A stretch of 64,000 nt of DNA, taken from assembly GCA_963662665.2 (NCBI GenBank), contig CAXXJS010000040.1, positions 32,001 to 96,000 of the forward strand. Direction: 5' to 3'. Shown here piece after piece: positions 35,062 to 58,531 of the stretch. The position numbers were made by a program, and so were the translations under genes. Source of the DNA: Candidatus Latescibacterota bacterium. Its GTDB lineage: Bacteria > Latescibacterota > UBA2968 > GCA-2709665. Below the pieces are notes generated by a model that was given only the letters and a program-made list of their open reading frames with translations, was not told where the DNA came from and did not search any database. How positions within the stretch are numbered: position 1 is the first letter of the stretch; every line of letters starts with the position of its first letter.

Positions 35062-35988
35062 TTATCGCGGCCGGAGTTCGATGTACTTCCGCTCGCAGTC
35101 CAATGCCTGCGCAATCGAACGGAGGAGTCGCACGACCACCCCGTCCGATCCGCCCAGAAAACGGATATCGTGCGCAATCGCCTTTAGCGCGTACTGACCC
35201 AGCTCCATCCCGTAGACGTGCATGGCTTCCCGCATGTTCTTCCAGTGCGGCCTGTTGGTGCGATACCCGTTCGGCAGAAAGGCGATCGGCACGTCCACCG
35301 CGTCCCGCATTTCCAGCACCACGGGCCACAGGTCTTCCGGCTCCCGCATGCCGCCCCCACCCACGACGTCCGCGCCGTCGCCGGCCAGGACACGCGCGCA
35401 TTCGGCAGGCGCGACACCGTCGGCGGTCACTTCGTCCTCTCGAAGCCCGGGCTTGTTCAACCGCCCCTCCGGCAGTGCGACGTCCATCGATACCACAACC
35501 GGCAACGCGCTGTTCTTGCAGCAAGCCAGCGCCAGGCGCGCCTCGTCAAGCCGGTTGAATGATTCGCAGACGAGCAGATCCACGCCCGCGTCTGCCAGTG
35601 TTCCAACCTGTTCCTCCCACTCTGTCCGGGCGCGATCCGCGGATCCCGGGTCGTCAGCCTGAAAGGCCCCCGTTGGCGCCAGCGTCCCCGCCACGAGCGC
35701 CTCCCCTCCGGCCGCACCCTTCGCCAGCGCCACGGCCCTCCGGTTCAACTCGCCGACCGCGTCCCCTTTTCTCCGTTCGCCAAGCCCGGTTCGCGTACAC
35801 CGGCCCGTTAGGGACCGGATCACGCCGGCGCCTGCCCGGAAGAAATCCTGGTGGACCAGCCGCACCGCATCCGGGAAGTCCTCCAGTACCCACGGCGCCG
35901 GATATCCCCGCAGCCTCAGTTCCTCAACGTTTCCACCGTCTCCCAGCACAAACCCTTCCTCAAGGGCACCAAGAACGGACTCATCCAT
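35062..35988 (-). CDS. Homocysteine S-methyltransferase family paralog lacking Zn-binding cysteines
   Basis: LGDGG, HQDFFRAGA and CESF present, but VGGGG and GGSDG replace the GxNC and GGCCG motifs. Confidence 0.8.
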   Translation of the reverse strand: MDESVLGALEEGFVLGDGGNVEELRLRGYPAPWVLEDFPDAVRLVHQDFFRAGAGVIRSLTGRCTRTGLGERRKGDAVGELNRRAVALAKGAAGGEALVAGTLAPTGAFQADDPGSADRARTEWEEQVGTLADAGVDLLVCESFNRLDEARLALACCKNSALPVVVSMDVALPEGRLNKPGLREDEVTADGVAPAECARVLAGDGADVVGGGGMREPEDLWPVVLEMRDAVDVPIAFLPNGYRTNRPHWKNMREAMHVYGMELGQYALKAIAHDIRFLGGSDGVVVRLLRSIAQALDCERKYIELRPR

Positions 35989-36034
35989 AAAACCGCTCCT
36001 CTCCTTTAACCATCTCATAAAACGCGTCAGAAAA

Positions 36035-36203: not shown

Positions 36204-38207
36204 TCAATGCCAGCTGTGTACCCTGTGCCCCGCGTGCGGGAACCAGATCGCATCCACAACCGAGCCCGCGATCACCGCCAGGATGTATCCCGTCAGGACC
36301 CCGATAAAGAAGGGCAGCGATCGCCTATAGAATGCCGTGCCGCCAATCCTGAGCATAAGGAATTTTATCAGCCACGCGACCAGGAGGGTGAGACTCTCCA
36401 GTCTGGTGAATATCGTGCCCGAAAGCGCGAACCCCACCGGGTGCAGTCGCCACCGGGGCAGCCGGTATCGCATCAGGTTCAGGGCCGTCATCACAACGAC
36501 GCCCGCGAAGAACAGCCAGTATTCCACGGCCAGGATCGGACGGGGGTTGCGCAGCGCGTCCACCGCCAGGGTGTAGTTCCATTCACCCTCGTGAAGAATC
36601 AACCAATTCGGTTGAAAATTGTACCCACCCATGGTGTAGGCCAGCCACACCGTATGGAGCGTCGAAACAACCGTGCCGACCATAAATGAACCGAAGACCC
36701 CCCAGAAAAGGCGCCGCTTGCCTTCCGGGATAAAATCGCCAAGACGGTTCACCTGCGCGATCACCGGCAGCGCGAAACTCCTGGGGTGGTTAACCGTGAA
36801 CGGCAGGAGGCTGGAGGCGGCGTTTGTGGAAGGACCCAGCCTGTGCGCCCCGCCCAGCGCGAACAGCGCGTAGTCCCAGGCCACCGCCGGCGGATCCACG
36901 TAGACGAGCCCGGAGTCGGCCACCACCTTCGCCACGCCCACGTACGTGATAAACATGGCCGGCGTCAGAACCAGAATCATAGCCGGCTCGATTCCGATCT
37001 GCGCGAGCCATGCCACAATGTACACGCAGCAGACAATCAGCCCGATCACGGCCGCACGATAGGATATCCACTCCCTGCTGTCATCCAGCGCGGACCCGCC
37101 CGGGCGAACCGCCTTCCGGAAGACCTCGCGCAGGTGCCCCCTGGAAATCCAGAGCCACCAGATGACCAGCGCCGCGAAGGCGCCGGCCGTCTGGAACTTG
37201 TAGCTCGTCAGGTTGTACGGGCCGGCGCCGTAGTGCGGGGACGTTGCCACCACGCCCAGTCGATTCAGAAGGCCGGCTTCAATCATATACAGGACGTCGA
37301 AGAACCAGATGCTGAAGAGCACTTCGAGATTGGCGAAATACGAAAAGCAAATGACGAATATGCTCAGATAGACGCAGAACGGGGGATAGTGTTTGGGCAG
37401 GAGATCCCACACGTATTGCATCCGGGTGTTCATCACCTTCGGAAAGGCGGGATAGAACCAGTGCACCATATTCAGCCAGAGAATCCCCGACGTCAGCCCG
37501 AACCCCGCCCAGAACGCCTTTCCTTTCATAAATTCCGGCAGCACCCGCGCCCCGGACCCGCTCCGGTTCGCCATCTCCAGTACCGGCGTCAGTGCCGGGT
37601 ACACCAGCTTTTCGTGGTCCGCCCACTGGCGATGCAGGATCACCGACACGCAGACGCAGGCGAACCCAAGGACGGCGATGAAGCCGAACCACCACAACAA
37701 CGGCCCCCACCAATCGTGCCAGGGAAGGGACATCCCGTTCGGGAGCCCTTCGAAGAACATGGTGATGGAATGCCGTTCGTCCGTTGATATCAGCCAGCCG
37801 GGGAGATGCGGGTGCAGATATTCCGACCACCGGTTCTCGGGCGTGGCGAAGTAGTAGGGAGCCACCAGCTGGCTGACGAGATATCCACTGATTCCGTAGG
37901 TGGGGCCCATGGCGCTTATCAGGGCCATGCCGAAAATTGTGATCCACTCCGCCGGAGCCAACACGAAACGCCGGCCGAACCATCGGGCAAGCGCGGCGCA
38001 GATCAGAATAGCCAGCAGAAAGAGCAGAAGGTCGCCCATCGGGATCAGGCTGATGGCCATGTACGACCCACGCTGGACGTAACGCATCGTATTGGCAAGC
38101 AGATTGACGGCTACGGACAGCCCGAGCCCGAATACGACCGCGCGAGTCGTTACGCCCGGGCTCGCGCGACGCCGGTTCCGCGGTTCTGCCGTGCCGCCGT
38201 TGGCCAT
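36204..38207 (-). CDS. DUF6785/DUF6784-like polytopic membrane protein, copy B
   Basis: Shares YFATPENRWSEYLHPHLPGWL, HRQWADHEKLVYPAL, PEFMKGK and ATSPHYGAGPY with copy A. Confidence 0.78.
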   Translation of the reverse strand: MANGGTAEPRNRRRASPGVTTRAVVFGLGLSVAVNLLANTMRYVQRGSYMAISLIPMGDLLLFLLAILICAALARWFGRRFVLAPAEWITIFGMALISAMGPTYGISGYLVSQLVAPYYFATPENRWSEYLHPHLPGWLISTDERHSITMFFEGLPNGMSLPWHDWWGPLLWWFGFIAVLGFACVCVSVILHRQWADHEKLVYPALTPVLEMANRSGSGARVLPEFMKGKAFWAGFGLTSGILWLNMVHWFYPAFPKVMNTRMQYVWDLLPKHYPPFCVYLSIFVICFSYFANLEVLFSIWFFDVLYMIEAGLLNRLGVVATSPHYGAGPYNLTSYKFQTAGAFAALVIWWLWISRGHLREVFRKAVRPGGSALDDSREWISYRAAVIGLIVCCVYIVAWLAQIGIEPAMILVLTPAMFITYVGVAKVVADSGLVYVDPPAVAWDYALFALGGAHRLGPSTNAASSLLPFTVNHPRSFALPVIAQVNRLGDFIPEGKRRLFWGVFGSFMVGTVVSTLHTVWLAYTMGGYNFQPNWLILHEGEWNYTLAVDALRNPRPILAVEYWLFFAGVVVMTALNLMRYRLPRWRLHPVGFALSGTIFTRLESLTLLVAWLIKFLMLRIGGTAFYRRSLPFFIGVLTGYILAVIAGSVVDAIWFPHAGHRVHSWH

Positions 38208-39449: not shown

Positions 39450-40160
39450 TCAATCGAGTTGAAAACGGATGTAGATAAACATGCGCACCTCAACAGCCTC
39501 CTGGTTCTGGTACCCGGGGAGATACCGGAAACCCGACAGGGCGTCCAGAGATGCTTTGTGAAACTGCTCGTGCCCTTTTTTTACCACGCCGTCTTTGACC
39601 CGGCCGTCCTTACCCACGGTAAACTCCATCAGGACGACACCTTCCAGTCCCGCACGCCGGGCCTCTTCAGGATACGCCGGATCCACCTGTTTGAGCAGTC
39701 TGGGTTTTCGTTCCACCAAACGCGACGGGTAGACCACTTCCCCGTCCACTTCCTCATCCCGAAACGGGGCCGGGACCAGGGAGTCCGAGGGCGCAGAAAG
39801 GCGTATCGATACCGCGTCGAAGTCGAGCTCGGCGGTTGCGGCAACCTTCATCTCTTCGGGCAGCAGGTCGCGACTATCGGTTTCGAGGGGCACCGGCGGC
39901 CGTACAAGAGGCGGGACCCTCATGCCCTGTCGGGTTTCCGGTACCTCTGTAACCTGGATCAGTATCGGATGTTTCACGGAGGCTGGCGTGCGGAGCCTGA
40001 AAGCCGGGAAAGTAAAGGCGACGGCCGCGTGAAGGGCGAGCGAAATCCCGACGCACAGGGGGAAGACCTTTCGATACTTCGCCTTCAAGTCCGCTTCGGG
40101 ACGCCTGGTGCGGATGACATTTCCGGTTATCCAGGGTCTGGGAGGCAGCTCCTGTGGCAT
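39450..40160 (-). CDS. tonB: Energy transducer TonB family protein
   Basis: TM helix with SLALH, Pro-rich linker and a C-terminal YPEEARRAGLEGVV..EFTV..DG domain. Confidence 0.85.
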   Translation of the reverse strand: MPQELPPRPWITGNVIRTRRPEADLKAKYRKVFPLCVGISLALHAAVAFTFPAFRLRTPASVKHPILIQVTEVPETRQGMRVPPLVRPPVPLETDSRDLLPEEMKVAATAELDFDAVSIRLSAPSDSLVPAPFRDEEVDGEVVYPSRLVERKPRLLKQVDPAYPEEARRAGLEGVVLMEFTVGKDGRVKDGVVKKGHEQFHKASLDALSGFRYLPGYQNQEAVEVRMFIYIRFQLD

Positions 40161-40240
40161 CGTACCCTCCACGCTGCCTGAACGGCCGGCGTACATGGGC
40201 TCATCGCGCGTTCAGGGTGCGCGCCGCGAATCAATGCCGA

Positions 40241-43012
40241 TTATCGGGGTGCTTTTCTCACCCAGAACAGCCCTTCCTTGGTCGCCTGATGACCACTGTT
40301 TACGTCCTTTACGGTCATGCGGACCCTGCGGCGCCCCGGGGCTGCCTCCCCGATGTCAAGCGCCACATAGTCTGAAACCGACGGCTCGGCGCCCGTTTGT
40401 TCGTACCTCACGGTAACCGCCGATTCCGACCGTCCCAGGACCCTCGTCTTCACGCGTGAAAGGCTGGCCCCGCTCTCGTCGGTGCTGTAAACCTCATAGG
40501 CCACCTCGTAGCGCGTGGCGCCAAAATCGTCCTGCGCGAGGTTGTAGATTTCGAAAAAGACGAATACGTGCTGGCCCGCGTTGAATACATGCGAAGGAAG
40601 CGGTGTGATGTTCCATTTTCCGCGGACGAACCGGGGGTCCGATCCGGGCATTGCCACCTCCACCCGCCGGGCAACGAACAGATCGCTCAGCTTCAGCCGT
40701 TCGCCTGAGTAGTCTTCCACGGACAGCTTTTGCGAATAAGCCTGGAGGCGATTCGTATTGTGGCGCTGAACCTGCACGGCCAGTTCGTATTCCCCCGGCA
40801 GAACATCCAGGAGGTCCACCCTGTCCAGTAACGCCCGGTCACGCCGCCGCCCCGAAACCGGCACGTCCAGATCCAGCTGTAAGGCCAACACCTTTTTGTA
40901 TCGGCCGTCCATGAGCGCCACCCGCCGATTGACCACTACGTCATTGTCCGTGTCCGTGGGAAGAGCGACGTTCTCAATGGGAATGCCCACGTTTACCTGG
41001 ACCTCGGTGCCATCGTTTTTCCCACGGAAAGTGACCACGTCGTAGCTGAAGTCGAGGGGCTCGAAAGCCGTCAGGCTGAATCGCTCCGGCTCCTCTCTGG
41101 ATACAGCAGCGATCCGTGTTGATGGTGCGAGTTCCGCGAGCCGCTGCATCAGGCGCACGTAGGCCATCTGACCCACGTGAGGGTCCTTATCGAGGTTCTT
41201 GAGATCCTGGCTGCTCACGCCCGGCACCGGCGCATAGTCGTATACACCTGAGTTCCGTTCATCCGTGAACGCGACTTCCAGACCCTTTCCCACGTCCGCG
41301 TACACCCAGACCTCCCAGGGTACCGACGCCCAGTTGTGCCCCGTCGTAACCGGCTTCCATCCGCTCAACCCGATGGCAAATTCAGGATCCAGATCGATGC
41401 CCGCCTGTATGGGAGAATCTTCGAGGTCCACCAGTTCCTGCGGCGCCGCAGCCGGATTGCCTCCAGCGCCCGGGTCGGCCTGATCGGGCGCAAACACCGC
41501 GAGGCCGAGTTCGTCGATTACGGCCGACTGCAAGTCGCGCCGGACGTCTTCGCTGGGTTCCAGAAAGGAACCCAGATCGGTACGAATGGGAAATACGGGC
41601 CCAACGAAGCTGATGCCCACGCCCTGGGCGCCATAGAGCTGGTAGGCCATATTGTCCTGAACGCGTTCAACGGCGGGAGGAACCTTCGGATTAGGCTGCA
41701 GCGAAGAGGACCGGTAGTCCGGCGCCCCGTACCGGATGTACACCTCTCCTCGCCGGTCCCAGGGCCACTTCAGCGTTCCGTACTTCGTTCGGGCATACCA
41801 GACCCGTCGATTGTGCTCCACCCGTCGCATCGCTCCCCGTGACGCCTTGAACGGGTCGTGGCGGAGCCAGAAGCGCTGCAGAAATGCCGTCCGCTTTTCG
41901 GGGGGTGTATTGCGATAGGCTTCGATTTCCCGGGGCAAGCCCACCAGCGACACATCCTGGTAAAGCGCCTGCTCTTCGGGATCGAGGCTTTCGATGTAGA
42001 TCTCGAACGCGCGCAGCGCGCCTTCGTAATTGCCCCTCGCCATCAACGCTTGCGCCAATAGCGGCAGCGCGAGGTCGTTGGTCATCAGGGAAGCAAGTGT
42101 TTCGACCTCTTTGAATTTTTCCTTCTCCAGCAACTCTCCGGCAAATGCCAGCGCCGCCGCCTGGTCCGCCGGCTTCAGTTCCAAGTATTTTTCGAAGTAA
42201 ACCATGGCGCCCTGCACGTTGCCCTCCTCCCGGTGGGCCTCGGCCAGCAACAGGTGGGCGGGCGCTATCCGGGCGTCGTATTGAAGCGCACGGTCCGCGG
42301 ACTGTCTCGCCCCCGGGCGCCCGGTTTCCTGATAGACGCGGGCAAGCAGATAGTGCGCCCGGGCATACGTGGAATCGGCACGCAGCGCGGCTTCCAGATG
42401 GGGCAAGGCGTCCGCCGCGTTACCTTCCAGTTCGAGGGCTACCCTGCCCAGACCGCAGTGCGCCGCGGCCAGTTCCGGGTCGAATTCCACCGCCCGTTCG
42501 AACGCGGTGCGCGCGCTGTCCGCCGCACCTGCTATCAGATGCGCCCGTCCGACCTGCTCGAGAGCCCGGGGCATATAGGTGTACGACCACGTATACGTGG
42601 AGTCGGCACGCAGCGCGGCTTCCAGATGGGGCAAGGCGCCCGCCGCGTCACCTTCCAGTTCGAGGGCTACCCTGCCCAGACCGCAGTGCGCCGTGGCCAG
42701 TTTCGGATCGAACCCCACGGCGCGTTCAAATGCCGACCGCGCTTCGCGAGCCATCCCCACCCGCAGATAGAGCATGCCGACCCGGTTCAGAACGAGTCCG
42801 GCGTGGTCCGGATGGTCGACAAGCGCCCGTTCCAACGCTTTCGCGGCCGCCACTACCGCCGGCACGTCACGGGCTTTCAGTCCCCTCGCGTACACGGCAT
42901 CCAGTTCAGACCAGGGCGTTCCGGCAGCCGGCGCGTTTGCCGGCCATTGCCCGGCGACAATCAGCGCGCCGCAAAGGAAAAGGCGCGCAAGCAGCCACCG
43001 CGGATCACCCAT
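40241..43012 (-). CDS. TPR + GWxTD domain-containing secreted protein
   Basis: N-terminal TPRs, FW..HDP, EHNRRVWYA, WDRRGEVYIRYGAPD, WEVWVY and LKLSDL motifs. Confidence 0.85.
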   Translation of the reverse strand: MGDPRWLLARLFLCGALIVAGQWPANAPAAGTPWSELDAVYARGLKARDVPAVVAAAKALERALVDHPDHAGLVLNRVGMLYLRVGMAREARSAFERAVGFDPKLATAHCGLGRVALELEGDAAGALPHLEAALRADSTYTWSYTYMPRALEQVGRAHLIAGAADSARTAFERAVEFDPELAAAHCGLGRVALELEGNAADALPHLEAALRADSTYARAHYLLARVYQETGRPGARQSADRALQYDARIAPAHLLLAEAHREEGNVQGAMVYFEKYLELKPADQAAALAFAGELLEKEKFKEVETLASLMTNDLALPLLAQALMARGNYEGALRAFEIYIESLDPEEQALYQDVSLVGLPREIEAYRNTPPEKRTAFLQRFWLRHDPFKASRGAMRRVEHNRRVWYARTKYGTLKWPWDRRGEVYIRYGAPDYRSSSLQPNPKVPPAVERVQDNMAYQLYGAQGVGISFVGPVFPIRTDLGSFLEPSEDVRRDLQSAVIDELGLAVFAPDQADPGAGGNPAAAPQELVDLEDSPIQAGIDLDPEFAIGLSGWKPVTTGHNWASVPWEVWVYADVGKGLEVAFTDERNSGVYDYAPVPGVSSQDLKNLDKDPHVGQMAYVRLMQRLAELAPSTRIAAVSREEPERFSLTAFEPLDFSYDVVTFRGKNDGTEVQVNVGIPIENVALPTDTDNDVVVNRRVALMDGRYKKVLALQLDLDVPVSGRRRDRALLDRVDLLDVLPGEYELAVQVQRHNTNRLQAYSQKLSVEDYSGERLKLSDLFVARRVEVAMPGSDPRFVRGKWNITPLPSHVFNAGQHVFVFFEIYNLAQDDFGATRYEVAYEVYSTDESGASLSRVKTRVLGRSESAVTVRYEQTGAEPSVSDYVALDIGEAAPGRRRVRMTVKDVNSGHQATKEGLFWVRKAPR
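42365..42733. repeat. Intragenic direct repeat (~140 bp, period 228 nt) encoding duplicated TPRs
   Basis: 42365-42505 and 42593-42733 are nearly identical, both encoding AHCGLGRVALELEG.AA.ALPHLEAALRADSTY. Confidence 0.85.
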
Positions 43013-43044
43013 ACGCCGTCATCTCCTCGGGAAACAGAACACTG

Positions 43045-43190
43045 GTGTCCTGTCCTAAAAATATCTCACCATTCGACCGCCGATTCATCCCGTCTCGCTA
43101 CGTTGGGCCGACCTGCCCAGGTCGGAGGTGCCTTGCGAGCCGGTCGACTCGACGGCCAAATTTAGGCAACTTATTTCTGGGACAGAACAC
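43045..43190. mobile_element. MITE-like non-autonomous element, copy 1 (146 bp)
   Basis: Imperfect TIRs GTGTCCTGTCCTAAAAATA / TATTTCTGGGACAGAACAC. Left ~60 bp nearly identical to 60479. Confidence 0.75.
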
Positions 43191-43255
43191 TAGGCGGCCC
43201 TGTCGCGTTAACCAAAGCCGCCTAGCGGTTTGACTCGAACTGCGCTTCCTTGCGA

Positions 43256-44230
43256 TCAGAACGACCCTGTCACGGAAAACCGCAGGGTCGCACCATTGTC
43301 GGGGAACTTGTCGAACTTCACGTAGGCAAAATCCGCCTGTACGTGATGAATGCCGCGCTGCAGCCGGACGCCTGCACCGGCAGTGACGTCCTGCACGTCG
43401 TAGCCCAGCTTGTAGCCGGCCCGAAGCGCGACGATGTTCCGCAGCCAGAGCTCCGCCCCCGCGTGCATCCGACGCTCGACGCTCACGCTGTAGAGCGCCT
43501 CGATCGCTCCAGTCAGGGAGACGTCGTCACCCCGCTCCCCGTAGACCTCCGCCGCGGTCGCCATACTGAAGAAAACAGGCATCTTCCCCTTGATGGCTTC
43601 GTCGGTCAGGAGCACCAGGTCCTTTCCGAAGTTGCGCAGCGACATGCCGATACGCAGACTTCGGTATCCGGTATGGTAGAAGGTACCGACCGCCAGGTCG
43701 AAGACGCGGTAGTCGTAGCCCCTGTCCAGTTTTTCCTCGATAACCCGCGCCTGGAACCCCACGGAGAAGCGCTCCGTAAACTGCCTGGCATAGACTCCGC
43801 CAACCGCCCAGCTTCCGGTGTCCAGGATCCGGCCCGTCCCCTCCGGACTGAATATGGTAGTTTCCTCGATATCGCCTGTGTCGAACGCCACCAGGCTGAC
43901 TGCCAGAGCGCCGTAGTCGGTATTGACGCCGATCGCCGCAGAGTTCAATTGGGAATCAAGGAGCCACCTGGTGTTTGTGAACGCAAACTGCAGCCGGTTG
44001 CGGGTCATGGCCGTGAGCCCGCCAGGATTCCAGAAAACGGAATTGATGTCGTCCGCCACGGCAACGTAAGCGTCTCCCATCCCTGCGGCGCGTGCGCTCT
44101 GGGATATTTCGAGGAAAGCCGCGTAGGTCTCGCCCACCGGGGTCTGGTTGGAAATTTCGGCCAACGCCGGGGCGCCGAGAACGAGGACGCCCACAAGCGC
44201 CGTAAAGCCGATCCGATAAATGCGCCTCAT
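43256..44230 (-). CDS. PorV/PorQ family outer-membrane beta-barrel
   Basis: AAFLEISQSARAAGMGDAYVAVADD..SVFWNPGGL signature, C-terminal Phe. Confidence 0.88.
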   Translation of the reverse strand: MRRIYRIGFTALVGVLVLGAPALAEISNQTPVGETYAAFLEISQSARAAGMGDAYVAVADDINSVFWNPGGLTAMTRNRLQFAFTNTRWLLDSQLNSAAIGVNTDYGALAVSLVAFDTGDIEETTIFSPEGTGRILDTGSWAVGGVYARQFTERFSVGFQARVIEEKLDRGYDYRVFDLAVGTFYHTGYRSLRIGMSLRNFGKDLVLLTDEAIKGKMPVFFSMATAAEVYGERGDDVSLTGAIEALYSVSVERRMHAGAELWLRNIVALRAGYKLGYDVQDVTAGAGVRLQRGIHHVQADFAYVKFDKFPDNGATLRFSVTGSF

Positions 44231-44240
44231 GGCGACCTCC

Positions 44241-46769
44241 TTAGCGAATGATGACCAGCTTTGCGCCCTTCACCTCGCCCTGGGATTCGGATAACAGGGA
44301 CTCGACGGTGACAAAATAGACGCCGAAGGTCAGCTGCGTGATATGCGTTCTGTTGAACTGGAAGAAGGCCGCCTCACCCTCTGTCTGCGAATCGTGGTCT
44401 ACCTCGCCCACCAGGTCGCCGGCCACGGAGAAGATCCGGATCTTGGCCTTTCTGGGCACGTTCAGGATGCGGATCTTGGTTGAGCCCTCGTACGTGTGCG
44501 GCGACTCGGGGATATAGGGGTTCGGCACAATGAGAATGTCCTTTTCCAGCCGGTCCGCAGTTGCGGTGGGTACCTGAACCGGGCTGTCTGGCGCCGACCC
44601 CGTAGGGGGCAGATAGTAGGTGGAAACGTCTCCGATGCCGGACTCGAAGGCCCGGACCCCGCCCTCCACGGTGGCGCCGGTAACCCGGCTGGCGAATCCG
44701 GTGTTGGCGCTACCCTGGTAGGAACGCACGGCATAATAGTACTGGAATCCCGCGAGCGACTCCGTGTCTTCGTACTGATATTCCGCCGAGCCGTTCGCCG
44801 GTACGTCCTGGATCATTTTCCAGATGCCGGGCTGGGTCTCGGACTGGTACACCCGGTAGCCCGCCACGTCTGACTGCCCGGTATCCGGGTTGATCGACTT
44901 CTCGGGGTCGCCCTTCCAGGTGATCAGATTGCGGGCATTCTCGGAGGACGTCACCGTCGCGTCCACGTCGGGGGGCTGATTGGGCAGGTCGTAACCCAGC
45001 GCGTAGGCCTCCCTGGCCTTTTGCAGGTGGTTGAGCAGGTTGGTGAACGCGGCCCCGTTCTCCTCCTTCTTGAGTTCGCTGGTGTCGCCCGACTTCTGGT
45101 AAGCCCGGAAATTCTCCGTAACCGGGGCGGCCGCAACGTAGGCGAATACGAATTTCACCTTCTGGCCGGGCGCCAGGTCGTAAGGGCCGTAGGTTTCCGC
45201 CGGGGTATAGGCGCCGGAGATTCCGTGCCGTCCCTCCCATTCCCACGAGGGGATCGGCATATACGGCATGGGGCCGACAGGGACCTCGGGAATCGGAAGC
45301 AACGGCACACCGAGGTTGGGGTTGCCGGACCCCCGGCTCGGGCGCTCCAGGAGCGGCTCGTTGAAGTAGGACGGGTCCGGCGTGCTGACGAGCATCTGGT
45401 ACAGCGTTTCGTGGTTCATCTCATTCGGGTTCGGTTCGTCCGTGAGGAACCCGATGGCGTCCGACGCGCTGGACGGATATCTATACAGAAAATGGAAGAA
45501 ATTGTACGCGAACGGCTGCTCCGGTACCTTCGGCGCCTCGTAGGTCTCAGGATCGCCCGCGAACCCGTCCGTCGGGTCCACGTCCAAGGGGGCCTTGCCG
45601 ATCCAGGCCGGCGAGGTGACGTCTCCAACGCCGGTCAGGCTGGGGAAGGTGCACTGAGCGCACCTGTGTTCGGAGCGGTACGGGTCTCCGATATCGTCGG
45701 ACAGCGGCCCTGTAAGGCAGAAGTTGTCCCAGTCGTACTGGTAGGTCAGCCGCAGGCCGCGGGCGGAGGCCGGACCGTCGTAATTCGGCGCCTCGGTATA
45801 CTTGATCTTGTCGTCCTGGGAATTGTCCAGGGGTCCGAAATTACTGCTGCAGCCGTCTCCCGTGCCGTAGTCGGAATAGTAGGCCCTGTAACTGGTACGG
45901 GAGACGCCCGCGGAAGACGTCATGAACCGGTGATGGAACGAAAAATAGACATTGCTGAGATTGTGGCCGCCGCCCGCAAGATCGGCCGCCCGGTCGCCGT
46001 CCGTATCGCCGGTGTTCTCGAATACCCACTCCGTGATCACGAAGTCGTCGTAGTCCGGGTGGTTCCAGGCAAAGGCCGCCTTCTCACCGGTGATGCCCAG
46101 CCCGGTGGTCCACTTGCTCAGAACGATGTCTTCCGGAAAGTTGTCCGCGGAAACGTCGTTGTACTGGCCGATGCGGTAGTTCAGAATCTCCCTGGGTTCC
46201 AGCGCGTCCAGTTCAACACCGGTGCCGGGCCACCAGTTGCCCATGGAACGCCCCGAATTGGGGCTGACCACGTCGTTGCCCAACCCGGCGTACTTGCCCT
46301 TGAAGTCCACGCCGGGATCCACCGCCATCGCCACCACGTCTTCGCTTTCCTCCATCGCCGAGATGAGCGGGTCGGCCCAACTCACCTTCGCCTCGCCGTT
46401 CAATTTCGTGGCGATCCACCATCCGTGCCCACGCCCGTTGTGCGACGTGAGATCCACGTGCATGCTGCCGGCGCTGCGCTGTTCCCCGTAGTAGGCCGAA
46501 AAGTCGTTCGTTCCGCCGCCGCCCCAGCTGATCAGCGCAAACCCCGGATAGGCCAGGTCCAGGTAAAGACCGGCATAGTTCCCTTCGACCGGCCGCGCGC
46601 CCTCCGCACCGGTGCTTAGAAAACTGTGCCAGAGGGTGCCGCGCGCAAGGTGCCGGGGCGTGAGCGACTCACCGGCCAGGTTGGAGACGGTCGCCCTCTG
46701 ACCCTCGGCCGGAATCCAGAACACGCCTGCGATCAATAGCGCGCCAATCAATATGAATATGCGTCTCAT
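44241..46769 (-). CDS. Large secreted protein with FN3-like domain and T9SS-type C-terminal sorting domain
   Basis: Signal peptide, FN3-like ITW...AGYRVYQ...YEDT...YYYAVRSY, and CTD IVPNPY...IRIFSVAGDLV...GVYFVTV...KLVIIR. Confidence 0.8.
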   Translation of the reverse strand: MRRIFILIGALLIAGVFWIPAEGQRATVSNLAGESLTPRHLARGTLWHSFLSTGAEGARPVEGNYAGLYLDLAYPGFALISWGGGGTNDFSAYYGEQRSAGSMHVDLTSHNGRGHGWWIATKLNGEAKVSWADPLISAMEESEDVVAMAVDPGVDFKGKYAGLGNDVVSPNSGRSMGNWWPGTGVELDALEPREILNYRIGQYNDVSADNFPEDIVLSKWTTGLGITGEKAAFAWNHPDYDDFVITEWVFENTGDTDGDRAADLAGGGHNLSNVYFSFHHRFMTSSAGVSRTSYRAYYSDYGTGDGCSSNFGPLDNSQDDKIKYTEAPNYDGPASARGLRLTYQYDWDNFCLTGPLSDDIGDPYRSEHRCAQCTFPSLTGVGDVTSPAWIGKAPLDVDPTDGFAGDPETYEAPKVPEQPFAYNFFHFLYRYPSSASDAIGFLTDEPNPNEMNHETLYQMLVSTPDPSYFNEPLLERPSRGSGNPNLGVPLLPIPEVPVGPMPYMPIPSWEWEGRHGISGAYTPAETYGPYDLAPGQKVKFVFAYVAAAPVTENFRAYQKSGDTSELKKEENGAAFTNLLNHLQKAREAYALGYDLPNQPPDVDATVTSSENARNLITWKGDPEKSINPDTGQSDVAGYRVYQSETQPGIWKMIQDVPANGSAEYQYEDTESLAGFQYYYAVRSYQGSANTGFASRVTGATVEGGVRAFESGIGDVSTYYLPPTGSAPDSPVQVPTATADRLEKDILIVPNPYIPESPHTYEGSTKIRILNVPRKAKIRIFSVAGDLVGEVDHDSQTEGEAAFFQFNRTHITQLTFGVYFVTVESLLSESQGEVKGAKLVIIR

Positions 46770-46830
46770 GAAATTTCTCCCTGCCTGTTTGTGCCGGGAC
46801 GGCCGGGCCGCCCCGGCATCGTATCTATTC

Positions 46831-49800
46831 CTAGAAGCCGATCCGCACGCCCGCGTTCACGTATCTCGGCGTTCCGCCGCGCCTGAAGTTCGAGTCGCCG
46901 TACTTCAGATAGTTGGTGTCGTTCGGCGTGGGCTTCTTCAGGCCCCATCGGACGTAATTGGACCCCGAAGACGGGTCGTAAAAGGTGTTGAAGAGGTTGA
47001 ATACCTCCACGTACATCGTTGGGGTGGTTGTACCAATCCGGAACGACTTCTGGAAGTTCAGGTCCGTCCGAACGAAAACCGGCCGGTTCCGGGCAGTCTG
47101 TACGCTCGTTCCCGGAAGGGTGATCTGGAATTGCTGCCCGTTGTCCAGCCGCCAGACCACGTTGGCCTGGATGCCGCCCAGAATCTTTGCGCCGCCCACG
47201 TCTCCGCCCGGCCCCCAGTCCATTGGCGTGGACCAGAGGAACTGGAAGGAGGCATTCGTGGTTGGCGGCTGCCCGCGGAACGCGTCCACCTGGCGCCAGA
47301 CGTCCGCGAACCAGAGGTTCTGCATCTCCTGCTTCTCGGATTCGCTCAGGCCGGGATATTCATGCCAGGGACGTATCGCATCGATCCGGTTTGTTCCCCA
47401 CGCCCCGACGAACGTCGTCCCCTCCTGTTGCTTTTTCCGGATCACTTCGTTCGCCCTGTGGCCGATCGTCCGGATTTCTTCGTCGGTCAGACGGACAATT
47501 TCGTCGTTCGCATCGACCGTGAAGTATTTCGAACTGGCAATGTAGTTGGAGTCGGGGTACGTCCAGACCTGAAGCTGGGATCCGCCCGACCAGTTGAAGA
47601 GCGCCCAACTCACGTCCAGCCCAACCCGGAAGGAGAAATTGTGGGAGAAGGCCTTGGTGAAACCGACTTCGATTCCCTTGGTTTCGAGGCGGGCGTTCGG
47701 ACCCCTGTGGCCCACGTAGGCGAGGGTCTGGATGGGATCCTGGAACCGGTGCACGCCACCGGAACCGACCCGCTCGGTCCGGCGGTAGTAGGTGGACAAC
47801 TCCACCACGAAATCGCTGATGAAGTTCCACTCGCCGGTCACCTCGAACTCGGCGGTGTTCGGCAACCCGCCCGGATCCTGGTAACCGCCGTCCAGTCGCC
47901 ACTGACCGCCGCCGATCCAGTTCAGATCGAACCAGACGTCATCCAGTTCGGGGTGGTTCTCGGCGTCGGAAGTGGTCCAGGGCTCCAGCCACAGCAGGGA
48001 AAATTGCGGTGGCTTGTAGTACACGCCGTATGAGTACCGCACGGTGGACCGATCTGTGATCGGATGGGACAGGCCGATCCGCGGCGACAGGCTCGTCATC
48101 GGCCGGGTCTTCGCCAGCGGCACCCGCCCCGTGCGCCAGGCCTTATAGGTTCTCCAGCCCGGCAATGCCTTCATAAAGCCGGACAACGTCCGCTCGGGCC
48201 CGCCCCAGAAGCTGTCGAAGCGCAGGCCGGCGTGCAACACCAGGCCCTGGAACTCCAGCTTCTCGTCCACGTACGCCGCCAGCCGGTTCACCGTATACCG
48301 CTTGCCCGGTTCGCTGTTCCCGGCCATGATCTTGATCGTGGCGTTGGTCGCGCTGGACCGGTTGTAGTCCCAGTTGAGGTTGTTCATATTCTGGAACACG
48401 AACCCGGCCTTGAACAGATTCCGCCGCGTAAGCTGTCCGGTGAAGTCGTACCGGAGGTTGTACCTCTGGTTGTCTTCCACCACGATGCGCCTGCGGTCCC
48501 TGTCTATATTGAATTGACCCAGTTTGTCCCGTCGCCAGGACGTCGTCGTGGAAGGTACGTCTTCGCCCGGATCGGTCTTCGTACCGTAGTATCCCACCTG
48601 GAATTCGTGGAACATCCGGGGGTTGATGCTCTGCGTTCCCGTTACGTAGAAAATCCGGTTGACCCGGTTCTGCTGGTACCCTGTCGTGCCGTTGATGAGG
48701 AAGAGGTTGCCCCCCACCGACCTGTTGGCGTCTCCAAAGAACGTCGGCTCGTTGGACTGGTTGAAGCCCACCTTGACCTTGAGGTTGGGCGACGGGGTAA
48801 AGCTGACTTTTCCGAAGATGCTATGCTGCCGCAGCCCCGTCAGCGTGGGCGCGGGCAGATTCTGTTTGGAGCGGCTGGTCTTCCCGCTCACCACAAAGGT
48901 GGCGTTCTCGCCAAGCGGGCCGGTGACCCAGCCTTCCACGAAGTGCCCGACGGAACCCTCGTAGTCCTGCTTGACGTGGATCTGCTGTCCGGTTTCCGGA
49001 TCTTGCTCGTTCACCCATTCCGGATTGTTCCACTGCAGCCGGTCGCGCCAGTACCCGTTCGCCCCGCCCCGCTGCCCCGGCGTGGCTTCGTACACGTTCG
49101 GACCGCGGTGCCGTTTCCCCGGCAATTCCACCCGAAGGTCCAGGCCGCCGCGGTAAATCCGCGAGCCCTCCCGGCTGATGATGTTTACCACACCCGCGGG
49201 CGACGACGCCTGCGAGGCATCCGCCCCGCCCCTGACCAGCCCCATCTCCCCGACGGCGGTTACCGGCAGGTTCGAGTACTGCCTGGGGGCCGTCTGCTGG
49301 GACGTATCCAGGTTCATCAATTCAATGCCGTCGAAGGTCCAGGTCTGCGCCGCGCGCATCGAATAATAGCTCATGTGACGGATGCGCACGCCGTTGCCCG
49401 GGCTGTCGTTCACGTTCGTGCCCACGGCGTACTGCAGGTGCTCCCGGATCCCTCTGATGATGGGTACCTGTTCGATTTCCTGCGAGGATATCTTCGCCTC
49501 GCTTGAAGTCCGGTCCACCTCCACCAGCGGCCGTTCGGCCCTTACCACGATCTCGGCGGCCTCCAGCGCCGATTCCCGGAGCGTGAAATCGGACACCGTT
49601 GTCAGGCCCGCCGCCACCCTGACCCGCTCCCGCACCACCGCCTCGTAACCCACTATCGATGCCTTCAGGGTGTATAACCCGGGCTCGACACCGATAATGA
49701 CGTAATAGCCTTCGCTGTCGGACGTCGCTCCGAATCGCGTCCCGTCGACCACCACGTTGGCTCCCGGCAAGGCGCCGCCGTCCGGGTCGGTCACCTGTCC

Positions 49801-49893
49801 TGTAATCTTGCCGTAAAAGGTCTGGGACTGCGCCGGCCCCGCCAGCAGGCATAACGCCGCAATTGCGCCCAAAATCGTTAGTCCACGCTTCAT
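46831..49893 (-). CDS. TonB-dependent outer-membrane transporter with N-terminal carboxypeptidase-regulatory-like domain
   Basis: GKITGQVTD..G.ALPGANV, plug GVVNIISREG, LSPRIGLSHPI, EVFNLFN and C-terminal PRYVNAGVRIGF. AAGGAG RBS before MKRG. Confidence 0.92.
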   Translation of the reverse strand: MKRGLTILGAIAALCLLAGPAQSQTFYGKITGQVTDPDGGALPGANVVVDGTRFGATSDSEGYYVIIGVEPGLYTLKASIVGYEAVVRERVRVAAGLTTVSDFTLRESALEAAEIVVRAERPLVEVDRTSSEAKISSQEIEQVPIIRGIREHLQYAVGTNVNDSPGNGVRIRHMSYYSMRAAQTWTFDGIELMNLDTSQQTAPRQYSNLPVTAVGEMGLVRGGADASQASSPAGVVNIISREGSRIYRGGLDLRVELPGKRHRGPNVYEATPGQRGGANGYWRDRLQWNNPEWVNEQDPETGQQIHVKQDYEGSVGHFVEGWVTGPLGENATFVVSGKTSRSKQNLPAPTLTGLRQHSIFGKVSFTPSPNLKVKVGFNQSNEPTFFGDANRSVGGNLFLINGTTGYQQNRVNRIFYVTGTQSINPRMFHEFQVGYYGTKTDPGEDVPSTTTSWRRDKLGQFNIDRDRRRIVVEDNQRYNLRYDFTGQLTRRNLFKAGFVFQNMNNLNWDYNRSSATNATIKIMAGNSEPGKRYTVNRLAAYVDEKLEFQGLVLHAGLRFDSFWGGPERTLSGFMKALPGWRTYKAWRTGRVPLAKTRPMTSLSPRIGLSHPITDRSTVRYSYGVYYKPPQFSLLWLEPWTTSDAENHPELDDVWFDLNWIGGGQWRLDGGYQDPGGLPNTAEFEVTGEWNFISDFVVELSTYYRRTERVGSGGVHRFQDPIQTLAYVGHRGPNARLETKGIEVGFTKAFSHNFSFRVGLDVSWALFNWSGGSQLQVWTYPDSNYIASSKYFTVDANDEIVRLTDEEIRTIGHRANEVIRKKQQEGTTFVGAWGTNRIDAIRPWHEYPGLSESEKQEMQNLWFADVWRQVDAFRGQPPTTNASFQFLWSTPMDWGPGGDVGGAKILGGIQANVVWRLDNGQQFQITLPGTSVQTARNRPVFVRTDLNFQKSFRIGTTTPTMYVEVFNLFNTFYDPSSGSNYVRWGLKKPTPNDTNYLKYGDSNFRRGGTPRYVNAGVRIGF

Positions 49894-50116
49894 ACGCCAA
49901 CTCCTTCGCTGAAGAACCCATCGACCATTCCACCGGTCAACGCCAGGAAACGGGCGCCGCCGGATCGGATATGCGGATGGAAAGCTCAGTGTACGGTCAA
50001 ACCCTCGAATTCGCCTTGTATAGTGATCCTCTCCATAGGCAGTCGTCCTCATTGAAAAACCGGTTAGAGTGGATTCAAGCAATCCTCAATGTCCCGTCAC
50101 GGAAATACGTTGTCTA

Positions 50117-50782
50117 TCACTCACCTGCGCCGAAGTCTCCGGCGAAACCGATAAAGTCCTGAAAGTCTACGGTTCCATCTCCGTTCAGGTCGAATATCGG
50201 ATTGAATTCTGCTTCTCCCCGGGTGCTGCCGAATGCCGCAGCGAAGCTTGAGAAGTCCGCAAAATCGACTTTCCCGTCTGCGTTGAAGTCGGACCGGATT
50301 CGCGATTGCACCGGAACGCTGCTGAAGATTCCAGGGTTACTGAGGGACAGCAACCGGCCCGGCGCCGGGTCGCCGGGCTGCCATGAACCCACAGGATCCC
50401 CGAGTTCCATTCCATTCGTGAATCCGTCCCTGTCCGAGTCGAGCTGCGCCAGGCTGGGGCCCCACGTCACGTTTCCGGAATAACCGGCCTGGGACAGGAA
50501 CCCTCTCTTTACGGTAACGCCGAAGGAATTCAGCGGTCCGCCGCCGCTTGTGTACGTGTGGCAACTCGCGCAGATCCCGTCGCCCTCGTTTATGGCTTCA
50601 TGCGTGGTCTCGGAAAGCGGAATATCCAACCTGGTGGTTGTTCTGCCCCGGTCGACGTGGCATGTGCGGCAGCGGGCCGCGCCGGCGTTTGGGACCTGAA
50701 ACACCCGTTTGGGCCGCGCCTCGGCGCCCCAGCGGACCAGAATTACGACGAGAAGAATGGCAGATGCGATCCGGGAGTTCAT
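50117..50782 (-). CDS. Secreted temptin-like domain protein with two CxxCH motifs and C-terminal EF-hand/dockerin-like repeat
   Basis: CRTCH, CASCH, GGGPLNSFG and DSDRDGFTNGMELGDP motifs. Tail DFNADGKVDFADF...DLNGDGTVDFQDF. Confidence 0.7.
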   Translation of the reverse strand: MNSRIASAILLVVILVRWGAEARPKRVFQVPNAGAARCRTCHVDRGRTTTRLDIPLSETTHEAINEGDGICASCHTYTSGGGPLNSFGVTVKRGFLSQAGYSGNVTWGPSLAQLDSDRDGFTNGMELGDPVGSWQPGDPAPGRLLSLSNPGIFSSVPVQSRIRSDFNADGKVDFADFSSFAAAFGSTRGEAEFNPIFDLNGDGTVDFQDFIGFAGDFGAGE

Positions 50783-51520
50783 TTAACGTATGAAGTACTT
50801 GATTCCGACCATCAGGTTGAAACTGAAAATCGGAAACGTCTTCTTCAGGTCCCAGTCTTCGTAGGGCCTCAATTCGCCCATCGATACGTTCCACCGGACC
50901 CTGAAGTCCACCAGAAATTGATCGGACGTCCGGCGGTAGAAACCCAGCCCCGTGTTGATGGACAGCGCCATGTCCTCGTCCACCGTGGTTTCCACCATGC
51001 CCTGGGAATCCGTCCTGATCTGTTCGCCCACCTGCCCCGGCCAGATCAGACCCGAAACCTCGTGTGTATACTTGAGAAAGCCGATACCGGCCGCGACGTA
51101 GGGAACGCTCTGCCCGGCCTCGTCGGGCTTGAACGTGCGCAAACCGTTGACCACGATGCCTCCGATCCACATACTGGCCTCGGCGCCCGGGCTTTTTACC
51201 GAGGAACCGTTTGCCGCGCCCAGGCCGTTGTGCCAGGTGAACGACCGGTCGGACAATCCGGCGTCGGCAAGTGGCGAGTACGTCACTTCGACTTCCGTCA
51301 TCGTTCTGTCGGACACCTGATACGTCAACTGCCCTACGAACGCCGGCGAGATATTGTACCAACCCTTGAGCGGCCCCGCCGGCCGCAACATGGATCCGTG
51401 GACGCCAAGCGCATAGCGCATCTCCTGTGCGTACGGTGCGGACGTGATGCCGAGTCCGAACAGAATAAACGCGCCCAGGACCGGGACGAGCGCCAATCTG
51501 AGAATGCCCGTTTCTCTCAT
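50783..51520 (-). CDS. Outer-membrane beta-barrel protein (8-stranded OmpA/OmpW-like)
   Basis: Signal peptide, PYVAAGIGF and C-terminal VGIKYF. GGAGG RBS. Confidence 0.75.
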   Translation of the reverse strand: MRETGILRLALVPVLGAFILFGLGITSAPYAQEMRYALGVHGSMLRPAGPLKGWYNISPAFVGQLTYQVSDRTMTEVEVTYSPLADAGLSDRSFTWHNGLGAANGSSVKSPGAEASMWIGGIVVNGLRTFKPDEAGQSVPYVAAGIGFLKYTHEVSGLIWPGQVGEQIRTDSQGMVETTVDEDMALSINTGLGFYRRTSDQFLVDFRVRWNVSMGELRPYEDWDLKKTFPIFSFNLMVGIKYFIR

Positions 51521-56203: not shown

Positions 56204-58531
56204 ATGGCCGTAGACATCACGCTGGCGAACGAAATCCGGGTACCGCGCCGTGGAGAGTGGCTGTGCAGGGGACTGCCGTTCGCGGAGGGATCTTTGACGG
56301 ATTCCGCGAGGCTGACCCTGAAAGACGAGACCGGCCAGGTCCTGCCTCTCGCTTCGGAAGCATTGGCCCGATGGCCGGACGGGTCCCTGAAGTGGGTGCT
56401 GCTTCAGTTTCCGGTACACTTCGACCGCAATGGTCGGAAGCATTATGCGCTGACGTGGGCGGAGGACTCGCGGGAACCCGATACCGGTCCCCGGATTACC
56501 ATTTCGGAGACCGAGGCGGGAATCGAGGTTGACAACGGCGTTCTGCGATTTGTACTTCCCGCTTCCGGAAAGGCGTTTCTGGTGGAGTGCAACAGGAGAG
56601 ACAGGGCGTGTATCCGGACGGTAAGCGCACAGATCGAAGACGAAGCGGGCGTTGCATTCTCGAGCCGGCTCGAGGGAGAACCCCGCATTGAGAGAAACAC
56701 CGGGAAGATGCTGGTTGTGAGCAGGAAGGGCACGCACCGTGACGAGGCCGGTCGGAAGCTGTTTTCACTCGTTTTCCGGGTTACGGTATTCGCCGGTGCG
56801 GAGGACCTGGAGGTGGAGTACCAGTTCATCCACGATGAGCCCTACCGGGAAGTTCCCGAACGGCTGAAACTGGCCCAGGGTATCGGTACGCCGAGCGTGG
56901 ACCTGGAAAGTCCACGCCTGCGACAGCTGCGGGCAGTGCGGCTTGTTGTGGAACACGCTATCGGCGACGCCGACGAATTCGCAACCTGTCCCATTGCCAC
57001 GGTTGGGAACCAGGGCCTGATCACGTCGGCCCGACCGATTCGGGGTCTGTTGACCGACGCCCCGCGTACGGCCATGTATGACGCCATGATCGACGCCGAC
57101 GTGGACGACGGCGAGACACAGATCGGCCGGTCGCACGGGTGGATTTCCGCGGGGGACGGCGAAGGCGGGGTCGCGGCCTCGGTCCGGAAGTTCGTCCAGC
57201 AGTGGCCCAAGGGGTTTTCCGCGGACGCCGGCAGAATCGTTCTGGACCTATGGCCCGAGGCGGCGGGGCCACTGGCGATTTTCCAGGGACAGGCCAAATC
57301 GCATCAGGTCAAGCTGCGGGCGTACACCGGCAAAGCCGCCCCGGCGCGGCTGGCGGACTGGCACTTCGCGTATCAGTTTCCCGTTGTCTTCTCGTCTCCG
57401 GACTGGTTTATCGACTCCGGCGCGGTCGGGCCCGTGTTCCGGTATCAGCCGGAAAAATACAGGGGAATCGAACAGAAGTTCCGCCTGGAATTCGAGCAAT
57501 TCCTGGGATACGACCGGCGGCTGGGGATGATGGACTACGGCGACTACGAGCAGCTGATGAGCGCATCCTGGGGACGCGCGGATTTCATGGCCAATTGTGA
57601 GCACGATTTCGGCCAGACCGTGTACCTCCAGCTTGTACGCACCGGCAATTACCTCTATCTCGACGCCTTCGAATCCGCGATCCGGCACGTGATGGACCTT
57701 GACGTCATCCACTTCGACGATCACTTCGACGAACAGGGCGGATGGACCTCCCATGGCGCCTTTCACGTGGGGGCGGACGGGAAGCCAAACTGCCACCTCT
57801 CTCACATGTGGGCGGAGGGATTTCTGTCGTACTACTATTATTGCGGGTATACTCCGGCGTTGGAATCCGCGCGCGGCGTGGCGGATCTGATCTGCAGGAA
57901 GGTGGCGGCGGGCGGCGGAAGGCGGGGGGCGCGGGACCGTGGATGGCCGTTGATCGCGCTGTGCAGCGTCTATCGGGCTACGGGGGAAAAGCGGTACGCG
58001 AAGGCCGCGAAGACGATTGCGGCTTCTTTTTCCGAGGGACCGGACCCGCTGGAACCCAACGGCGGCTGCAGCGGCGGCTGGGGCCCCATCCCCTACCAGC
58101 AGGCGGTGATGGGCAGCATTGCCGCAACCGGGCTGGCATACCACTACCAGACCTTCGGCAGTTCCCCCAGCAGGGATTCGTTCCTGAGGTTGTGCGACTT
58201 TCTGGCAAGCGAGGACGTTCGCACGCCGGAAGGGCTCTACCTGTCCATGCCGGGAAACGAGACGCCGATGAGCTACATCGGTTTTTCCGCCCTCCGGGAA
58301 AGTATCGGTTACGCGTGGGAAATCACCGGTGACGAGAAGTACGTGCACGCCGGTCTGCGGGACATCGAAATGAACATGATTTCCACCTTCCCGTCCGTAG
58401 GGCATTTCGACAAGACGAGATTCGGGTACGAGGTCGTCCGCGCGACAGGCGACTCCATCAGCGTCATCTGGCGCGACCTGCTTCGATTTTTCGACTACGC
58501 GGACCGGGCGGGGCTACTGCGCGACTTCTGA
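56204..58531 (+). CDS. PcRGLX/YetA-like (exo-rhamnogalacturonan lyase-like) protein
   Basis: GLPFAEGSL, LARWPDGSLKW, QQWPKG, GQAKSH, GMMDYGD, RHVMDLD and SHMWAEG motifs with an (alpha/alpha) toroid C-terminus. Confidence 0.75.
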   Translation: MAVDITLANEIRVPRRGEWLCRGLPFAEGSLTDSARLTLKDETGQVLPLASEALARWPDGSLKWVLLQFPVHFDRNGRKHYALTWAEDSREPDTGPRITISETEAGIEVDNGVLRFVLPASGKAFLVECNRRDRACIRTVSAQIEDEAGVAFSSRLEGEPRIERNTGKMLVVSRKGTHRDEAGRKLFSLVFRVTVFAGAEDLEVEYQFIHDEPYREVPERLKLAQGIGTPSVDLESPRLRQLRAVRLVVEHAIGDADEFATCPIATVGNQGLITSARPIRGLLTDAPRTAMYDAMIDADVDDGETQIGRSHGWISAGDGEGGVAASVRKFVQQWPKGFSADAGRIVLDLWPEAAGPLAIFQGQAKSHQVKLRAYTGKAAPARLADWHFAYQFPVVFSSPDWFIDSGAVGPVFRYQPEKYRGIEQKFRLEFEQFLGYDRRLGMMDYGDYEQLMSASWGRADFMANCEHDFGQTVYLQLVRTGNYLYLDAFESAIRHVMDLDVIHFDDHFDEQGGWTSHGAFHVGADGKPNCHLSHMWAEGFLSYYYYCGYTPALESARGVADLICRKVAAGGGRRGARDRGWPLIALCSVYRATGEKRYAKAAKTIAASFSEGPDPLEPNGGCSGGWGPIPYQQAVMGSIAATGLAYHYQTFGSSPSRDSFLRLCDFLASEDVRTPEGLYLSMPGNETPMSYIGFSALRESIGYAWEITGDEKYVHAGLRDIEMNMISTFPSVGHFDKTRFGYEVVRATGDSISVIWRDLLRFFDYADRAGLLRDF

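Follow-up and report, generated by a model that had tools for sequence, protein, structure and literature searches.

SusC/SusD is the textbook model of polymer capture in Bacteroidota, and its SusD component is a lipoprotein with a helical fold resembling tetratricopeptide repeats (TPRs). Among related phyla, Latescibacterota, Fidelibacterota (SAR406), Calditrichota and others abound in the sea, in sediments and in animal hosts, and no equivalent capture model is known for them. Another way of keeping proteins at the cell surface is offered by the secretion system of type IX (T9SS): the C-terminal domains (CTDs) of its cargo sit in the extracellular loops of PorV, as reported in PMC10994853, and cognate barrels are described as holding or routing CTD proteins, with PorZ on PorQ, PorU on PorV, and type-B cargo with PorP/SprF (PMC10202324, PMC12618676). 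Here we analyze a window of 64,000 nucleotides (positions 32,001 to 96,000 of contig CAXXJS010000040.1) from a Candidatus Latescibacterota bacterium (assembly GCA_963662665.2), in which a TonB-dependent transporter (TBDT), a secreted protein that we call X, and a PorV-like barrel form a conserved trio that is probably a nutrient-capture machine.

The trio belongs to a set of seven genes that all lie on the minus strand in the same orientation (39450-51520). Its first member, the TBDT (~1020 aa; 46831-49893, in an open reading frame (ORF) open to 50082), combines a CarboxypepD_reg domain with a plug; it is followed by X (842 aa; 44241-46769), a secreted protein with a body, an FN3-like domain and a CTD-like tail, and by a barrel of the PorV/PorQ family (324 aa; 43256-44230) recognized by model NF033709. 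The gaps between these genes are 61 bp (TBDT to X) and 10 bp (X to barrel). A preliminary description of this DNA had listed the seven co-oriented genes, both gaps and the lack of a SusD gene; orientation and spacing agree with the gene coordinates, and the last claim extends to the whole genome (4.86 Mb, 92% complete), where two SusD models (PF07980, PF14322) found no match, both matching the control Bacteroides thetaiotaomicron. A scan for promoters and terminators was not informative, with more sites in shuffled sequence than in the real one.

The same genome holds six diverged cassettes of this kind, with the order (small outer-membrane protein)-TBDT-X-barrel; between cassettes, TBDTs are 30-58% identical, X proteins 27-56% and barrels 36-54%. 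The cassettes account for all six full-length TBDTs of this type and for six out of nine PorV_fam genes scoring above the cut-off. To look beyond this genome, we searched one genome per species with an alignment of the barrel, kept the best 80 loci of 481 confirmed relatives, and used profiles of all three proteins to scan the ORFs found there, which gave 81 barrel genes; the loci were thus picked via the barrel, and Latescibacterota predominate among the best 80. Within this sample, a TBDT and then X stand directly upstream on the same strand of 75 of the 81 barrel genes, and the remaining six are all truncated by contig ends, so that there is no counter-example. Median gaps across the trios are 61 bp from TBDT to X and 28 bp from X to barrel. 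By record title, the 75 trios fall into Latescibacterota (41), Gemmatimonadota (19), Fidelibacterota (6), Calditrichota (2), Eiseniibacteriota (1) and Delongiibacteriota (1), and five more carry no phylum name. Several Gemmatimonadota-titled records (L002, L003, L007, L026 and others) are 92-96% identical across the locus to Latescibacterota-titled ones; one of the two labels must therefore be wrong, and phylum counts based on titles are soft. Of 121 Fidelibacterota genomes sampled, 112 also contain barrels of the cassette subfamily (up to 18 matches per genome).

Trees computed with FastTree for TBDT, X and barrel (43 of the 81 trios, rows with X identities of 88% or more having been removed) have 24-25 of 40 splits in common. 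Their Robinson-Foulds distances are 30-32 of 80, compared with ~79.6 of 80 when labels are shuffled, and only one or two well-supported splits are in conflict among the three trees. The trio is inherited and duplicated as a block. The three-part module without SusD that the preliminary description had put forward is accordingly conserved and co-inherited, both in its synteny, kept in records titled with six phyla, and in the largely congruent trees of its partners.

Some loci depart from the simple arrangement. In Fidelibacterota and related loci (L061, L062, L063, L076, L077, L079, L080, L084, L085, L092), the barrel is followed 2.4-4 kb downstream by a second full-length X paralogue, for which the fetched stretch contains no separate barrel. 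In some relatives, X (L027, 2286-4875) or the TBDT (L040, 1434-5703; L080, 1816-4973) is split into two ORFs, which reflects frameshifts, errors of assembly or, in L040 with its 1.1-kb gap, an insertion.

From the anatomy of the module and the CTD/PorV precedents in the literature, we infer a chain of three steps. X would cross the outer membrane through the SprA-type translocon encoded in the genome. Its tail would then stay uncleaved and seated in the loops of the private barrel, as PorZ is on PorQ or PorU on PorV, which would keep X at the cell surface with no need of a lipid anchor. Placed beside the TBDT, X would capture substrate and pass it on for TonB-driven import, thus filling, with unrelated parts, the place that SusD has beside SusC. 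We regard the complete chain, in which X is exported, held by its tail in a private barrel and captures substrate for import by the TBDT, as evenly poised between right and wrong.

The transporter itself probably starts at the Met at 49893, immediately ahead of a signal peptide. Its N-terminal domain matches CarboxypepD_reg in Pfam (E 2.3e-18), and neither Pfam nor single-sequence searches matched its plug and barrel. The plug was recognized with a profile built from nine paralogues, which hits the corresponding domains of FepA, Cir, PirA and YncD (best E 5.2e-15); some 750 residues follow the plug, and the C-terminal residue is F. Membership of the SusC/RagA family was considered and ruled out, as TIGR04056 gives 40.6 bits against a cut-off of 368.25 and matches the N-terminal domain only.

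X has a signal peptide, no lipobox and no match to any Pfam family. It consists of a beta-rich body (residues ~26-595), an FN3-like domain (~596-705; match to 3mpc, E 2e-5) and the CTD-like tail (~743-842), and mean column conservation is 0.51 in the FN3-like domain and 0.53 in the tail, compared with 0.34-0.44 in the body and 0.22 in an insert at 421-520. The family comprises 609 cluster representatives (E<=1e-3) among 1.84 billion, and matches at E<=1e-10 occur in 155 of 168 Latescibacterota genomes (at most six candidates scored per genome). Attempts to name it gave little: a word-indexed protein search returned close relatives only, with no useful names; the cluster look-up read 'hypothetical protein' throughout; the diverse X alignments A1 and A2 contain no segment of sufficient conservation for a locus search; and such a search with a single distant member (P0088) found no locus. 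In the ESM Atlas, whole X resembles unnamed clusters that are commonest in Gemmatimonadota, Bacteroidota and Ignavibacteriota, which we take as leads only, and the body alone gave no usable named match.

The predicted structure of the body (residues 26-595) is a single, mostly beta domain (predicted local distance difference test, pLDDT, 83.8; predicted template modelling score, pTM, 0.91) with no close solved relative in the PDB, the best template modelling (TM) score being 0.31. A SusD-like fold for X was rejected, the body being mostly beta and X having no lipobox and no Pfam match. The weak matches that the fold search returned (TM 0.21-0.31) are all glycoside phosphorylases, glycoside hydrolases or cyclic glucan synthase, which gives a faint lead towards sugars. 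That they are all carbohydrate-active enzymes also suits a different explanation, namely that X is ordinary T9SS cargo, an enzyme or adhesin, equipped with its own shuttle barrel, and that the TBDT is merely co-regulated and imports the products without any complex or lid. In Flavobacterium, it is established that particular CTD types have shuttle barrels of their own (PMC12618676). We nevertheless consider this explanation unlikely, because X directly follows the TBDT in every testable locus (median gap 61 bp), because the TBDT tree follows those of X and the barrel more tightly than is usual for co-regulation, and because none of the genome's six TBDTs of the cassette type is found outside a cassette.

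The preliminary description had called the tail of X a type-A-like CTD; its homology to type-A CTDs holds (hhalign against the 16 type-A CTDs of the genome: 96.8%, E 2.4e-10, 69 columns, 19% identity), whereas it fails the type-A cut-offs, with 15.8 bits for TIGR04183 (cut-off 23) and 18.9 for PF18962 (cut-off 27). Four of the six own X paralogues score 15.8-20.9 bits with TIGR04183, and none of the 16 proteins in the genome with a type-A CTD above the cut-off is an X gene. The type-B model PF13585 (CHU_C), with a cut-off of 27 bits, finds nothing in the X of the window, reaches 15.6-22.7 bits in four of the genome's six X paralogues, and matches ten of 65 X family members at E<=0.01. Sub-threshold matches to the CTD end of the PorZ model were found in three of the six own paralogues (E 6e-7 to 4e-5), and the PorZ structure 5m11_A is matched in its CTD by X profile A1 (E 3.8e-5). 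Since the tail is homologous to type-A CTDs and scores below all cut-offs, it is a diverged, separate subtype of T9SS CTD.

Tails of the X type also end many ORFs of 900-1340 aa whose bodies are unlike X, as seen in three genomes of other phyla. In a hand count in these three genomes, 30 of 36 tail-bearing proteins (8/10, 12/14 and 10/12) lie at most 1 kb upstream of a cassette-type barrel. Because this adjacency includes proteins with other bodies, the pairing is one of tail with barrel, whatever the body, and by sequence the tail would be a shared docking module on exchangeable bodies.

The barrel scores 175.5 bits with NF033709 (PorV_fam; cut-off 90), and the barrels of the other five cassettes score 142.9-164.2 bits. 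It stays below the equivalog cut-offs for PorV (NF033710, 77.4 vs 250), PorQ (NF033711, 68.9 vs 220) and PorV2. The best candidate for a housekeeping PorV is a separate gene on contig C5 (NF033710, 153.5 bits), adjoining a relative of a T9SS-dependent M6-like protein, and the early suggestion that the locus has a PorV paralogue of its own is borne out by a private barrel distinct from this gene. An AlphaFold2 model of the barrel from a 43-row alignment (pLDDT 87.6, pTM 0.81) shows 14 strands that enclose an N-terminal segment. Its top Foldseek matches are PorV chains, 8gl6_F (E 1.4e-13, TM 0.74), which is PorV from the translocon bound by the RemA CTD, and 6h3i_F (TM 0.73); FadL, TodX and TbuX follow at TM 0.53-0.59 and BamG at 0.47. 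In its predicted fold, the barrel is thus nearest to PorV.

The lower-ranking matches raise the question of whether the barrel instead admits a hydrophobic substrate as a FadL-type channel or joins the small outer-membrane protein (OMP) in a BamG-like role, helping to assemble the TBDT, in which case the tail would anchor nothing. FadL, TodX and TbuX are indeed the next-best folds, and FadL-like BamG is reported to bind a surface protein inside the Bacteroidota β-barrel assembly machinery (BAM) (PMC12578637, PMC12611786). Yet PorV chains are clearly the best folds, tails of the X type, on different bodies alike, adjoin a barrel in 30 of 36 cases, and the tail is the best-conserved part of X. 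We therefore give a channel or helper role the slimmest chance of all the readings considered here.

Of the T9SS machinery in the genome, SprA is present (630.6 bits, cut-off 200), and a PorU-like ORF of 1933 aa scores 222 bits, below the cut-off of 420. Candidates for GldK were only proteins resembling the family of formylglycine-generating enzyme (FGE) and sulfatase-related proteins, all below the cut-off. Across 81 Latescibacterota genomes, the GldM model gave one marginal match, and it matched no control either. The check for SprA, PorKLMN and PorU suggested in the preliminary description therefore came out in part: SprA and a PorU-like gene (below cut-off) were found, whereas GldM and GldL went unmatched, as they did in the controls. 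Either the motor of Latescibacterota is too diverged for the models, or their translocon is run differently.

This picture bears on another reading, in which the module exports. Oar combines a carboxypeptidase-regulatory N-terminal domain with a TBDT. In Myxococcus, Oar is required for secretion of the protease PopC, as described in PMC6434023, so that TBDT-dependent protein secretion is documented. In the same manner, the TBDT-like barrel of the module could move X or another protein outward with TonB energy, with the PorV-like barrel receiving X. The TBDT does lie outside the SusC/RagA family, and with GldM and GldL not found, in searches that had no matching control, surface display could conceivably be powered in another way. 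On the other hand, with SprA, the PorU-like gene and 16 ordinary CTD proteins, the genome already has a translocon to serve CTD proteins, and the searches for GldM and GldL lacked a positive control. Export by the TBDT is, in our view, very improbable.

The remaining genes of the set differ in how closely they are tied to the trio. The small OMP (245 aa; 50783-51520) is the first gene of the set and has a signal peptide, an aromatic C-terminal end, an AGGAGG-like site ahead of its ATG and a weak match to OMP_myx_plus (E 0.001). A homologue stands ahead of the TBDT in five of the six own cassettes and in 52 of the 75 trios, including those of Fidelibacterota and Calditrichota, and judged by this distribution the small OMP, which the preliminary description had listed without giving it a part, is probably a fourth core member and more constant than GWxTD or TonB. 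The secreted di-CxxCH protein (221 aa; 50117-50782), with the motifs CRTCH and CASCH, a Temptin_C domain (E 4.3e-12) and a dockerin/EF-hand-like end (Dockerin_1, E 2.9e-5), has full-length homologues in orthologous loci only and is an accessory gene specific to the locus in the window.

Downstream of the barrel lie a TPR-GWxTD protein (923 aa; 40241-43012), which matches TIGR04514 above threshold (40.9 bits, cut-off 28) and TPR families, and TonB (248 aa; 39450-40196; TonB_C, E 1.5e-16). GWxTD proteins occur at most 5 kb downstream in 33 of the 75 trios and give more than 20 tblastn matches across the genome, mostly away from cassettes; TonB lies downstream of eight of the 75 trios, all of them orthologues of the locus in the window. 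Given these frequencies and the scattered GWxTD copies, both are neighbours rather than parts, and the initial inclusion of TonB and of GWxTD, the latter as a possible assembly or energy-coupling partner, does not hold for the core of the system.

We also examined the surroundings of the six cassettes in the genome. Their neighbours encode GntR, pyridoxal phosphate (PLP) enzymes, a GH130-like protein, PhyH, M24 peptidase, FGE-sulfatase-like proteins, gamma-glutamyltranspeptidase and aminotransferases; oxidoreductases, methyltransferases and peptidases are also found, and the surroundings are not rich in glycoside hydrolases. The only clear carbohydrate-active gene near the module encodes a 775-aa protein (56204-58531) on the other strand, a few kb upstream, which has PcRGLX-like and GH127-like domains and adjoins ABC-transporter genes. 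Membrane proteins of the DUF6785/DUF6784 type are strongly expanded, with 23 tblastn matches in the genome, two of them in the window (36204-38207 and 29421-31400). They are often neighbours of GFO/IDH/MocA oxidoreductases and of genes of the homocysteine S-methyltransferase family, occur near three of the six cassettes, and may be the inner-membrane transporters of these loci. The homocysteine S-methyltransferase family, represented in the window at 35062-36018, has nine tblastn matches in the genome and up to four members per related locus. Genes of the FGE-sulfatase family lie directly downstream of the barrel in one cassette (contig C25, 64043-65628; L020, 7895-8830), and those beside the C25 cassette are the genome's best, sub-threshold matches to the GldK model.

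Several points weigh against the capture chain. The count of 75 in 81 means that this barrel subfamily accompanies TBDT and X, and it says nothing about every such TBDT; likewise, congruent trees and synteny indicate co-inheritance, not binding. The tail of X falls below every curated CTD cut-off, type-A and type-B alike, and the match of profile A1 to the PorZ CTD was not reproduced with profile A6. The body shows no recognisable binding site, its fold matches being weak throughout, and the genes around the six cassettes indicate no substrate. Export of X by the T9SS is putative: GldM and GldL were not found in the genome, with models that matched no control genome either. Expression speaks for the unit, with reservations. 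In two RNA libraries from one study, labelled as sponge metagenome, the small OMP, TBDT, X and barrel genes have counterparts on contigs at 90-96% identity, one of which (43631-44645) spans the X/barrel junction and another (46483-47088) the TBDT/X junction; these contigs may be carried-over DNA, come from a relative at 90-96% identity and do not constitute a single transcript. The GWxTD gene is mostly without cover by such contigs, and gaps of this kind carry no weight.

Taking the capture chain one step further, we tentatively propose a four-part outer-membrane machine in phyla related to Bacteroidota, made up of the small OMP, the TBDT, an exchangeable capture protein and a private barrel, in which an uncleaved tail in a barrel socket would replace the lipid anchor of SusD. 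As no PorL/M motor was found, with models that matched no control, surface display might even be powered differently from the classical T9SS. We hold this wider model to be possible but somewhat doubtful. If the trio does act as a capture-and-import machine, hundreds of unannotated proteins would gain a role, the conserved tail and barrel would serve as markers for uptake loci in metagenomes, and there would be a second way of tethering surface proteins, by a protein socket borrowed from the T9SS.

Compared with described systems, the pairing of X and barrel most resembles PorZ-PorQ, PorU-PorV and type-B CTD proteins with PorP/SprF, in which a CTD protein is likewise paired with a FadL/PorV-like barrel, often from adjacent genes (PMC10202324, PMC12618676), and the sub-threshold matches of the tail to the PorZ CTD add to the likeness with PorZ-PorQ. 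In contrast to these pairs, the barrel stays below the PorV and PorQ equivalog cut-offs and the tail below those for type A and type B, and the pair is joined to a TBDT operon in phyla outside Bacteroidota. Oar is not known to have a PorV-like barrel or CTD partner. Its likeness to the present system lies in a large non-SusC TBDT with a carboxypeptidase-regulatory-like N-terminal domain and in its link to a secreted protein (for the latter, PMC6434023). With SusC/SusD (RagA/RagB), the locus shares a TBDT with a carboxypeptidase-regulatory-like N-terminal domain encoded directly ahead of a surface partner, here a putative one, as well as many paralogous copies per genome in loci with catabolic and transport genes. 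It differs in that the TBDT does not belong to SusC/RagA, that X is mostly beta and has neither a Pfam match nor a lipobox, that the barrel is an obligatory third gene of the trio, and that SusD was not found in the genome. A description of an operon of TBDT, CTD protein and PorV-like barrel was not found in the full-text literature, with subscription journals mostly outside its coverage. The parts of the system are of known kinds, and what is new is their combination, the subtype of the tail and the body of X.

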